The position numbers were made by a program, and so were the translations under genes. A stretch of 64,000 nt of DNA, taken from contig JASCQW010000139.1 in NCBI GenBank assembly GCA_030264375.1, forward strand, positions 3,765,619 through 3,829,618. The letters run 5' to 3'. The stretch comes from Carcharhinus longimanus (lineage: Eukaryota). The notes under the pieces were generated by a model. The model did no database searches. It saw only the letters and a list, made by a program, of their open reading frames with translations, and had not been told where the DNA came from. Positions 3,197 through 18,914 of this stretch are shown in pieces (positions within the stretch are counted from its first letter, which is position 1; each line of letters opens with the position of its first letter).

Positions 3197-3373
3197 ATAT
3201 TCAGAAATATCCTCAGCAGAGAAATGTACGACAAGCAGCTCATGGAACTTTCCAGAAAAATTACAGACTGGGCCTATGGGCCAGTTTCTTCTTCACTTTA
3301 CGACATCACGGAAGTGGACACCTCAGCAAAGAATTCTGTCCTGAAAGTCGTCACGTTTAACACCACAATCCAG
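3197..3373 (+). CDS. TRPV3: TRPV exon: membrane-proximal linker (IFRNILSRE...[12 protein letters not shown]...FNTTIQ)
   Basis: ttgcag acceptor at 3191-3196; 59 codons. Best donor is CAG|GCGAGC (GC type); an in-frame GT alternative lies at 3380. Confidence 0.92.
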
Positions 3374-18300: not shown

Positions 18301-18914
18301 TTATGTTCTTATATTCTTTTCAAAGAGGGTAGAGTGTGTCTGGAACAAGCTGCCAGAGGCAGTAGTAGAGGTGGGTGCAATTTTGTCTTTTAAAAAGCAT
18401 CTAGACAGTTATATGGGTCAGATGGATATTGAGGGATATGGGCCAAATGCAGGAAATTGGGACTAGCTTAGTAGTTAAAAAAGGGTGCCATGGATAAGTG
18501 GGGCTGAACAGCCTGTTTCCATGCTGTAAACTTCTATGACTCTATGCAAATGCAAAACTACTTTCCAGTCAAAATCTCTTCCAATGGTGATCAAAGTTTG
18601 TTGGCTTAGCGTCACTTTTTTCTTGATCTGTTTGTTTTCTAGAAGAAAATGTTCCCGAAAGCCCAGGTGAAACGTATAGCAAATCGCTACCTTCAAGTAG
18701 AACCCCTCACAGATTAAGAAAAAACTTACATAGAAACATCTGGGGCAAGAGAAAACCAAACTTTGGCTTCCCAACCAGAGCGAACAGGAAGGCAGAGCAG
18801 AAAGATATACCACAGGTAGTGATGGTTCCTGAACATATGCCAGCAACATTGGGGACCATTGATTGCAATGAAGCAGAGGGGTCAAGCAAAGCAGAGACAG
18901 ACACAATGAATTAA
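3197..18914 (+). CDS. TRPV3: TRPV3-like transient receptor potential vanilloid channel, 5'-partial, 10 exons (3197-3373, 5970-6125, 6967-7050, 11236-11309, 11959-12124, 13035-13101, 14006-14277, 15547-15644, 16869-16945, 18643-18914)
   Basis: Manually spliced exons total 1443 nt (480 aa + stop) with compatible phases. Motifs: [57 protein letters not shown], short two-Cys turret, [48 protein letters not shown]. The GLGD filter, DAWFH and short turret are TRPV3-type. Strict orthology versus a shark-specific paralogue is unproven. Confidence 0.9.
4975..5420 (+). mobile_element. CR1-clade LINE 3' fragment
   Basis: YEERL..LGLFSLE and SRTRGH-like coding remnants; aagggccgaatggcctcctgctcctat tail. 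Confidence 0.85.
5970..6125 (+). CDS. TRPV3: TRPV exon: pre-S1 and S1 ([27 protein letters not shown]...YYDIPCVK)
   Basis: Pyrimidine tract plus tttag acceptor; AAG|gtaagg donor; 52 codons, phase 0/0. Confidence 0.93.
6967..7050 (+). CDS. TRPV3: TRPV exon: S1-S2 loop and S2 ([28 protein letters not shown])
   Basis: tttcag acceptor; GAA|gtaagt donor; 28 codons; G..x6..W..x7..E pattern matches TRPV3 S2. Confidence 0.85.
7128..7440 (+). mobile_element. HE1-like SINE, tail type A (CR1-like 3' end)
   Basis: gggcggcacagtggttagcactgctgcctcacag head; gatgggcc..tggccttcttctacactgtaggactctat tail. Confidence 0.9.
8057..8745 (+). mobile_element. Putative solo LTR inserted in CR1
   Basis: Starts TGTGAC; last ~120 bp align with the 3' end of the element at 54349-55020; CR1 sequence is continuous across it. 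Confidence 0.65.
8826..9110 (+). mobile_element. HE1-like SINE, type B
   Basis: Consensus head, core and type-B tail. Confidence 0.85.
9581..9735 (-). mobile_element. HE1-like SINE type-B 3' fragment
   Basis: aagtttatttattagtcacaagtaggcttacattaacactgcaatg is the reverse complement of the type-B tail. Confidence 0.8.
9792..10063 (+). mobile_element. HE1-like SINE, type A, internally deleted
   Basis: Head plus ctgtagggattctatgatt tail. Confidence 0.85.
10062..10327 (-). repeat. Inverted duplicate of 8617-8886
   Basis: Reverse-complement match across the LTR/CR1/SINE junctions. Confidence 0.92.
10579..10882 (+). mobile_element. HE1-like SINE type A, nested in an older SINE (about 10430-11090)
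   Basis: Consensus motifs; flanks match the ctagtaatccagagg..ctgccatccttacc family. Confidence 0.8.
11236..11309 (+). CDS. TRPV3: TRPV exon: S2-S3 linker ([25 protein letters not shown])
   Basis: ttttgtag acceptor; TT|gtgagt donor (phase 2); LQSI..DAWFH motif. Confidence 0.92.
11655..11935 (+). mobile_element. DeuSINE-like SINE
   Basis: tactgaaggaatgctgtactgtc..gtcttttggctgagccattaaacc..atatttatccctca. Confidence 0.6.
11959..12124 (+). CDS. TRPV3: TRPV exon: S3-S4 and S4-S5 linker (ILQAGLVIL...[28 protein letters not shown])
   Basis: ccattcag acceptor; AAG|gtaagg donor; hallmark LYYTRGF motif. Confidence 0.95.
12350..12700 (-). mobile_element. L2-like LINE 3' fragment
   Basis: acaacttgcat..ata..gcaacttta end resembles the reverse complement of the tail at 51900. 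Confidence 0.5.
13035..13101 (+). CDS. TRPV3: TRPV exon: S5 ([22 protein letters not shown])
   Basis: ctttcag acceptor; CAG|gtaaac donor (phase 1). Confidence 0.92.
13136..13433 (+). mobile_element. HE1-like SINE, type A
   Basis: Consensus motifs; starts about 35 bp after the S5 exon donor. Confidence 0.85.
14006..14277 (+). CDS. TRPV3: TRPV exon: turret, pore helix, GLGD filter, S6 and TRP box start
   Basis: aacag acceptor; [38 protein letters not shown]...[31 protein letters not shown]|gtatca donor. Confidence 0.96.
14359..14675 (+). mobile_element. HE1-like SINE, type A
   Basis: Consensus motifs. Confidence 0.88.
14846..15410 (-). mobile_element. Older CR1-clade LINE 3' fragment containing a (TG)n microsatellite at about 14918-14962
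   Basis: [21 protein letters not shown] motif on the - strand. Confidence 0.75.
15547..15644 (+). CDS. TRPV3: TRPV exon: TRP helix and proximal C-terminus ([33 protein letters not shown])
   Basis: tccaag acceptor; AG|gtaaaa donor (phase 2); RARTIL motif. Confidence 0.92.
16105..16490 (-). mobile_element. DeuSINE-like SINE
   Basis: cagtgcagcactccctcagtactg is the reverse complement of the Deu core. Confidence 0.65.
16514..16810 (+). mobile_element. HE1-like SINE, type B
   Basis: Consensus motifs. Confidence 0.88.
16869..16945 (+). CDS. TRPV3: TRPV exon: C-terminal domain ([25 protein letters not shown])
   Basis: aatcag acceptor; AAG|gtaaat donor (phase 1); INEVxW..W and EDPG motifs. Confidence 0.93.
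17113..17480. mobile_element. Non-autonomous DNA transposon (PIF/Harbinger-like MITE)
   Basis: Imperfect TIRs GGGGTGGAATTCT ... AGAATTGCCCC flanked by CAA on both sides (3-bp TSD). Confidence 0.55.
17795..18545 (+). mobile_element. Nested CR1 fragments (with gap)
   Basis: [41 protein letters not shown]; two CR1 tails. Confidence 0.85.
18643..18914 (+). CDS. TRPV3: Probable terminal TRPV exon ([54 protein letters not shown]...AETDTMN*)
   Basis: Strong pyrimidine tract plus ttttctag acceptor; 90 open codons in the phase required by the previous exon; TAA at 18912-18914; non-repetitive sequence. No homology support. Confidence 0.7.

Follow-up and report, generated by a model that had tools for sequence, protein, structure and literature searches.

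A probable single-copy TRPV3 orthologue closing a TRPV1-TRPV9-TRPV3 tandem in the shark Carcharhinus longimanus

Our results indicate that the channel gene in a 64,000-nucleotide stretch of Carcharhinus longimanus DNA (contig C139, 3765619-3829618; hereafter, the window) is very probably the single shark TRPV3 orthologue, standing third in a TRPV1-TRPV9-TRPV3 array and likely encoding a subunit of a tetrameric, Ca-permeable, heat- or chemical-gated channel. The gene has in effect already been classified in print, as it is the orthologue of the catshark protein XP_038670629.1, which Morini et al. named TRPV3 in 2022 (PMC9664204). An initial annotation of the window had recognized an elasmobranch channel of the TRPV3 clade, and this is borne out by its placement with chondrichthyan TRPV3 (100/100); the accompanying suggestion that it might be TRPV9 or a lineage-specific paralogue is not.

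RESULTS

Exon structure and reading frame

Ten exons between window positions 3197 and 18914 splice into 1,443 nt, that is, 480 codons followed by TAA with no internal stop, as initially annotated, and the other two frames of the joined exons contain 27 and 22 stops. Every acceptor is AG, and the donors are eight GT and one GC; the latter (3374-3375, after exon 3197-3373) makes the first intron of the window a GC-AG intron, and it is needed because it yields a junction identical to that of the Mustelus protein and found in other sharks. The frame is unlikely to be a product of chance, since the pore exon matches human TRPV3 at an E value of 3e-37, its best hit among solved structures (TRPV4, 3e-27; TRPV1, 5e-23), and since the window part of the protein is 89% identical to Mustelus XP_078080744.1. 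In single-domain database searches, the best matches of the pore exon are shark "TRPV3-like" proteins (86-90%), Mustelus being the nearest.

The exons, all on the forward strand, follow the layout of a TRPV channel, and the previously named motifs, including the TRPV3-type pore with its GLGD filter, two-Cys turret, and DAWFH, were all found. Coding exon 6 of 15 (3197-3373) encodes the end of the ankyrin domain, the linker beta-hairpin with SRKI (3251-3262), and the start of the helix-loop-helix with NSVLK (3332-3346). Exon 7 (5970-6125) encodes the pre-S1 helix and S1, ends in YYDIP (6102-6116), and includes the Asn codon (6003-6005) aligned with human H426 of the 2-aminoethoxydiphenyl borate (2-APB) site, while exon 8 (6967-7050) supplies a short, Thr-rich S1-S2 loop and S2. 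The S2-S3 linker, DAWFH, and the start of S3 fall in exon 9 (11236-11309); S3, S4, and the S4-S5 linker, with the Gly equivalent to human G573 kept, in exon 10 (11959-12124); and S5 in exon 11 (13035-13101). Exon 12 (14006-14277) carries the two-Cys turret (14026-14049), the pore helix, the GLGD filter (14104-14115), the S6 gate with the equivalents of I674 and M677 kept, and the TRP box, with Lys at human E689. Exon 13 (15547-15644) finishes the TRP helix and encodes the C-terminal beta-hairpin (15613-15642), which ends in KRYI, is 5 residues shorter than in human TRPV3, and has the human D727 position inside its gap; exon 14 (16869-16945) encodes the INEVNW strand and the distal C-terminal segment, where the equivalents of W739, W742, and E751 are kept; and exon 15 (18643-18914) encodes the C-terminal tail, predicted to be disordered in the Mustelus orthologue, and the TAA stop. 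The protein has ankyrin repeats, six transmembrane helices, the GLGD filter, the two-Cys turret, and the TRP box, as judged from its joined exons and aligned residues and from Pfam matches and the fold of the Mustelus orthologue. The introns (e.g., 7130-7440, 13140-13430, 14360-14670, and 16510-16800) hold a dispersed SINE-like repeat in many copies as well as LINE-like fragments, several of which end at N runs.

Phylogenetic placement and gene neighborhood

Orthology was assessed with three trees. The first was an 89-row FastTree tree and the second a 38-row IQ-TREE mixture tree that left out redundant orthologues along with several rows that were long or unnamed; the third, of 25 rows, excluded platypus, XP_074153859, Pelodytes, and the second of the coelacanth rows. 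Rooting depends on a single TRPV4 row together with the TRPV1/2 rows. In the 38-row tree, the window protein pairs with Mustelus (100/99) and then joins catshark XP_038670629.1 and Callorhinchus (100/100), with Callorhinchus branching first, and the other two trees place it in the same way. The sister group of this chondrichthyan clade is formed by the TRPV3s of coelacanth and tetrapods (100/98, 38-row tree), and the resulting gnathostome TRPV3 clade excludes TRPV9 and TRPV1. The branch length of the window protein is ordinary, as the distance to it from the TRPV3 root, summed along the path (0.74), lies within the 0.62 to 0.80 spanned by other TRPV3s (chimaera, 0.62; human, 0.68; crocodile, 0.69; coelacanth, 0.80).

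The gene order on C139 is SHPK (3.584-3.601 Mb), TRPV1 (3.622-3.658 Mb), TRPV9 (3675345-3730312, forward strand, upstream of the window), the window gene, and a convergent FAM222-family gene whose main exon (window 28464-29840, reverse strand) is open for 458 codons and matches PF15258 at an E value of 1.6e-201. By synteny, this neighbor is FAM222B, a marker lying outside the channel gene. The order is that given for catshark in the available text of Morini et al. 2022 (PMC9664204), namely, SHPK, TRPV1, TRPV9 (XP_038670634), TRPV3 (XP_038670629), and FAM222B. A pore-exon search of the genome returned nine matches (15 of 15 candidates scored), three of them in the cluster, one TRPV4-like, and five distant (25 to 36% identity), so that no fourth or further TRPV3-like copy was seen by this search of a gappy assembly.

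Two observations concern the tandem neighbors. The filter of the C. longimanus TRPV9 reads GLGE, as it does in Mustelus TRPV9, and the other TRPV9 rows (12 of 13) keep GLGD; such a lineage-specific Asp-to-Glu change could alter Ca2+ permeation or block. The 1,564-residue Heptranchias model XP_067864619.1 fuses TRPV9 with TRPV3 and is probably an annotation merge of tandem genes.

Alternative identities of the gene

That the window gene is itself TRPV9, the extra elasmobranch subtype, was suggested by motifs that differ from those of tetrapod TRPV3 and would accord with the presence of two TRPV3-like genes in tandem in the genome. A TRPV tandem does exist upstream, with TRPV1 and TRPV9 both there, but the extra subtype is the upstream neighbor and not the window gene: the middle gene of the cluster falls in TRPV9 (100/100) with the two accessions that Morini et al. 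assigned to it, XP_038670634.1 and XP_032902261.1, the first gene falls in TRPV1, and TRPV9 sits between TRPV1 and TRPV3, whereas the window gene is the last TRPV in the tandem and adjoins FAM222B. Moreover, the core of the window protein is 82.5% identical to catshark TRPV3 and 51% identical to catshark TRPV9, and tree placement and core identity together refute a TRPV9 identity, the chance of which we regard as negligible. A different possibility is that shark TRPV3 and TRPV9 arose by duplication within cartilaginous fishes, which would make the window gene a co-orthologue of tetrapod TRPV3; the tandem arrangement speaks for this, as does the fact that no TRPV9 is listed for Callorhinchus in the accessible portion of Morini et al. 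2022 (PMC9664204). However, an AU test in which shark TRPV3 and shark TRPV9 were held as one clade rejected that arrangement (P = 0.00079), and a shortened hairpin is common to chondrichthyan and sarcopterygian TRPV3 (30 to 35 residues versus 40 to 43). The duplication is thereby refuted under the model used and could be rescued only by gene conversion or strong model failure, and we consider it very improbable.

The 480-codon frame is real but corresponds to just the 3' two-thirds of the gene, and five more exons lie upstream of it. Three of these are on C139, with the start codon at 3752198; the other two, from the ankyrin domain, were not found upstream on that contig and were recovered with the Mustelus protein as the query at C61:84485854-84485994 (forward strand; 81% identity) and C43:72374445-72374725 (reverse strand; 91% identity). 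This location would be expected if the gene were broken in this animal, with the two exons moved to other chromosomes and the remainder a young pseudogene. Against this, each exon sits on a small contig inside another scaffold (2,759 and 5,971 bases) bounded on both sides by N runs, N runs are also present where the exons belong, their identity to Mustelus is as given above, and no second copy of either was found in the genome searches, which give lower bounds, 37% of the 200 kb upstream being N. The 15 joined exons, 2 of them from other scaffolds, encode 733 residues with fitting splice phases and no stop, and this model, which assumes mis-scaffolding as the simplest reading of the C61 and C43 locations, shows 88.3% identity with Mustelus XP_078080744.1 and 77.2% with catshark XP_038670629.1. 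Pseudogene status was rejected on the fitting phases, the stop-free joined frame, and the gap-bounded exon contigs, and we hold a broken gene to be most unlikely; the single TRPV3 orthologue is most likely real and intact. Exons placed in other scaffolds in this way, probably by scaffolding error, call for caution when gene losses are inferred from this assembly.

The end of the C43 contig matches the window over 79 bases at 99%; this match probably reflects the end of a common repeat, and we set it aside. With respect to expression, no sequencing run on record as RNA contains the gene. Contigs from four runs were aligned to positions 3100-7100, and one contig from a run whose library type is not on record (X5) covers 3195-3371 with three differences and extends past both ends; repeats dominate, no exon-exon joint occurs among the contigs shown, and it was not counted as evidence.

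Unusual residues are clade-wide

The changed residues at usually conserved positions, which had been taken as signs of divergence, are clade-wide in chondrichthyan TRPV3. The F377 position is Ile in 10 and Val in 5 of the 15 chondrichthyan TRPV3 rows (SRKI or SRKV in all 15) and Phe in all scored tetrapod TRPV3 (19/19), TRPV9 (13/13), and TRPV1 (12/12) rows, which makes this an old change of the whole clade. At E405, the same 15 rows have Lys (9), Asn (3), Gln (2), or Glu (1), and TRPV9 and coelacanth show variation here as well; chondrichthyan TRPV3 rows differ freely from one another at the YYRP positions. The estimate of a hairpin about 5 residues shorter was exact: the spacer is 30 residues in the window protein and 35 in the 17 tetrapod TRPV3 rows that could be scored (of 19). 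Among the chondrichthyan rows, it is 30 residues in 12, 35 in Callorhinchus, and of the same short form in the printed sequence of the 2 unscored rows, and the shortening is, from these sequences, an elasmobranch deletion present in 14 of 14 elasmobranch TRPV3s. Only five positions of the window protein differ from the consensus of chondrichthyan TRPV3 (range, 3 to 54 over 16 rows), one of them being a Gly for Glu just after the filter. Being clade-wide and leaving so few departures, the changed positions are not marks of a fast-evolving duplicate.

DISCUSSION

The window protein shows no difference of kind from the TRPV3 of catshark (XP_038670629.1), elephant shark (XP_007894728; Morini et al. 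2022), or Mustelus asterias (XP_078080744.1), with which it has its clade and cluster place in common and, in the case of catshark and Mustelus, also SRKI and the short hairpin. With mammalian TRPV3 (human PDB entries 6MHO and 8GKA; mouse 7MIJ) it shares the ankyrin domain, six transmembrane helices, two-Cys turret, and GLGD, as well as the I674/M677 gate, G573, the K169-E751 pair, W739/W742, and R696, but its N terminus is about 100 residues shorter, its C-terminal tail is longer, its hairpin lacks 5 residues including D727, and it has Asn at H426, Lys at E689, Asn at Q313, and Ile at F377. Elasmobranch TRPV9 (catshark XP_038670634.1), the sister subtype and tandem neighbor, has the L in the filter and the two-Cys turret in common with the window protein and differs from it in its long N terminus, its short C-terminal tail, and a hairpin spacer of 43 residues.

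TRPV subunits assemble in fours into nonselective, Ca2+-permeable channels. By extension from mammalian and frog TRPV3, the pore would be built by four of the shark subunits, each with its ankyrin domain packed on the beta-sheet that the linker and C terminus of the neighboring subunit make up, and this interface would set use-dependent sensitization. The conserved filter, turret cysteines, gate residues, TRP box, G573, K169, E751, W739, W742, and R696 are all kept in the window protein. In an AlphaFold model of the Mustelus orthologue, built from a 21-row alignment (mean pLDDT, 72; pTM, 0.62), the ankyrin repeats and six transmembrane helices are present, and the C-terminal hairpin has two strands joined by a tight two-residue turn; the best 26 Foldseek matches of the model are all TRPV3.

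Several residues that differ from the mammalian channel coincide with sites examined by mutagenesis, which makes elasmobranch TRPV3, varying at H426, E689, D727, and the C-terminal hairpin, a ready test of gating evolution. Of the 2-APB determinants, R696 is kept and H426 is replaced by Asn, as in 13 of 15 chondrichthyan TRPV3 rows (Ser in 2). Asn is also found in 3 of 19 tetrapod TRPV3 rows (crocodile, turtle, and kiwi), for which reason H426 does not define TRPV3 orthology, and in 8 of 12 TRPV1 rows; judged from these alignments, Asn is probably ancestral and not a shark innovation. Because H426N is the very change reported, in the accessible text, to lower 2-APB activation of human TRPV3 while sparing activation by carvacrol (PMC4115637), a poor 2-APB response of shark TRPV3 appears reasonably probable, this being a transfer of a single-site result to a protein whose core identity is just 56%. 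The TRPV3 of Xenopus tropicalis, likewise that of an ectotherm and with divergent termini, keeps H426 and is described as responding to 2-APB (PMC3072374).

A second prediction, which is more doubtful and carries over human and mouse single-site results in the same manner, is that the shark channel may already be near the sensitized state and show weak run-up, as the elasmobranch deletion trims the D727-bearing hairpin tip and E689 is Lys (15 of 15 chondrichthyan TRPV3 rows; D727 lies inside the deletion in 14 of 15). In the available description, D727 is at the open end of the C-terminal hairpin, and neutralizing both residues (E689Q/D727N) presensitizes TRPV3 (PMC7745752); the interface controls the use-dependence of heat activation (PMC6719031, PMC6538378), with K169, E751, W739, and W742 reported to control sensitization (PMC6538378). 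These four switch residues are, however, intact in the window protein, which runs counter to presensitization. Elasmobranch TRPV3 may thus, tentatively, be a natural hairpin-deletion variant able to test the sensitization switch.

The temperature range of the channel is not readable from sequence, and as the temperature polarity of TRPV3 can switch, it is not to be assumed for the shark; the X. tropicalis channel is reported to be cold activated with a threshold of 16°C (Saito et al. 2011, PMC3072374). In the accessible part of a catshark study, higher trpv3 expression is listed in "brain & olfactory epithelium," trpv9 appears under eye, and neither gene is entered for the ampullae (PMC11979771). 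The view of this channel as poorly characterized holds, in that our literature searches, which subscription journals mostly lay beyond, found no functional study of shark TRPV3.

TRPV9 itself may not be confined to sharks. Among 21 tetrapod rows named or picked as "TRPV3-like," 17 nest inside TRPV3 and 4 group with TRPV9, namely, caecilian XP_029468094.1, soft-shell turtle XP_075760750.1, platypus F6TGT3, and XP_074153859.1, whose close relatives are Sarcophilus and Notamacropus proteins and which, with them, is probably marsupial. In the 38-row tree, these four form a clade (100/99) that is sister to elasmobranch TRPV9 (98/94), and the tetrapod proteins and elasmobranch TRPV9 still group (97/94) in the 25-row tree, from which the two longest had been removed and to which a Bombina fragment, perhaps another member of the tetrapod clade, had been added. 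AU tests rejected a grouping of the four with bony-vertebrate TRPV3 (P = 0.00015) and, weakly, a position as sister to all TRPV3 (P = 0.023), both alternatives having been named after the tree was seen. The hairpin spacer is 43 residues in three of the four rows and in 7 of 13 TRPV9 rows (the rest unscored), compared with 40 in TRPV1/4 and 30 to 35 in TRPV3, and strict diagnostic columns number two shared with TRPV9 and none for either alternative; raw identity barely places these rows, whose identity to Heterodontus TRPV9 exceeds that to TRPV3 by only 1 to 3 points.

In the consulted sections of Saito et al. 2011, a platypus "TRPV7" is placed between TRPV1 and TRPV3 (PMC3072374), which is the position of shark TRPV9. 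In the available text of Morini et al. 2022, that platypus gene is called a TRPV3 and TRPV9 is held to have been lost in bony vertebrates (PMC9664204), and the accessible part of the tuatara genome paper describes an extra TRPV in common with turtles (PMC7116210). We did not meet a link between TRPV9 and tetrapod proteins in the TRPV9 literature found by word search, as far as its text was available. It seems likely that TRPV9 has an overlooked tetrapod orthologue, that TRPV1, TRPV9, and TRPV3 already stood in tandem at the origin of jawed vertebrates, and that some living mammals keep an unstudied thermoTRP-type channel. If so, the view in print that bony vertebrates lost TRPV9 would need correction, and the platypus "TRPV7" and the extra turtle and tuatara TRPV would probably be united under one old subtype.

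The second "TRPV3-like" genes of frogs were also considered as true orthologues of the short shark protein and were rejected, as the 16 frog-type rows nest inside anuran TRPV3. Many frogs have such a second, faster-evolving TRPV3 copy, and these rows form one clade in the 89-row tree, in which the Caretta "TRPV3-like" row nests inside reptile TRPV3.
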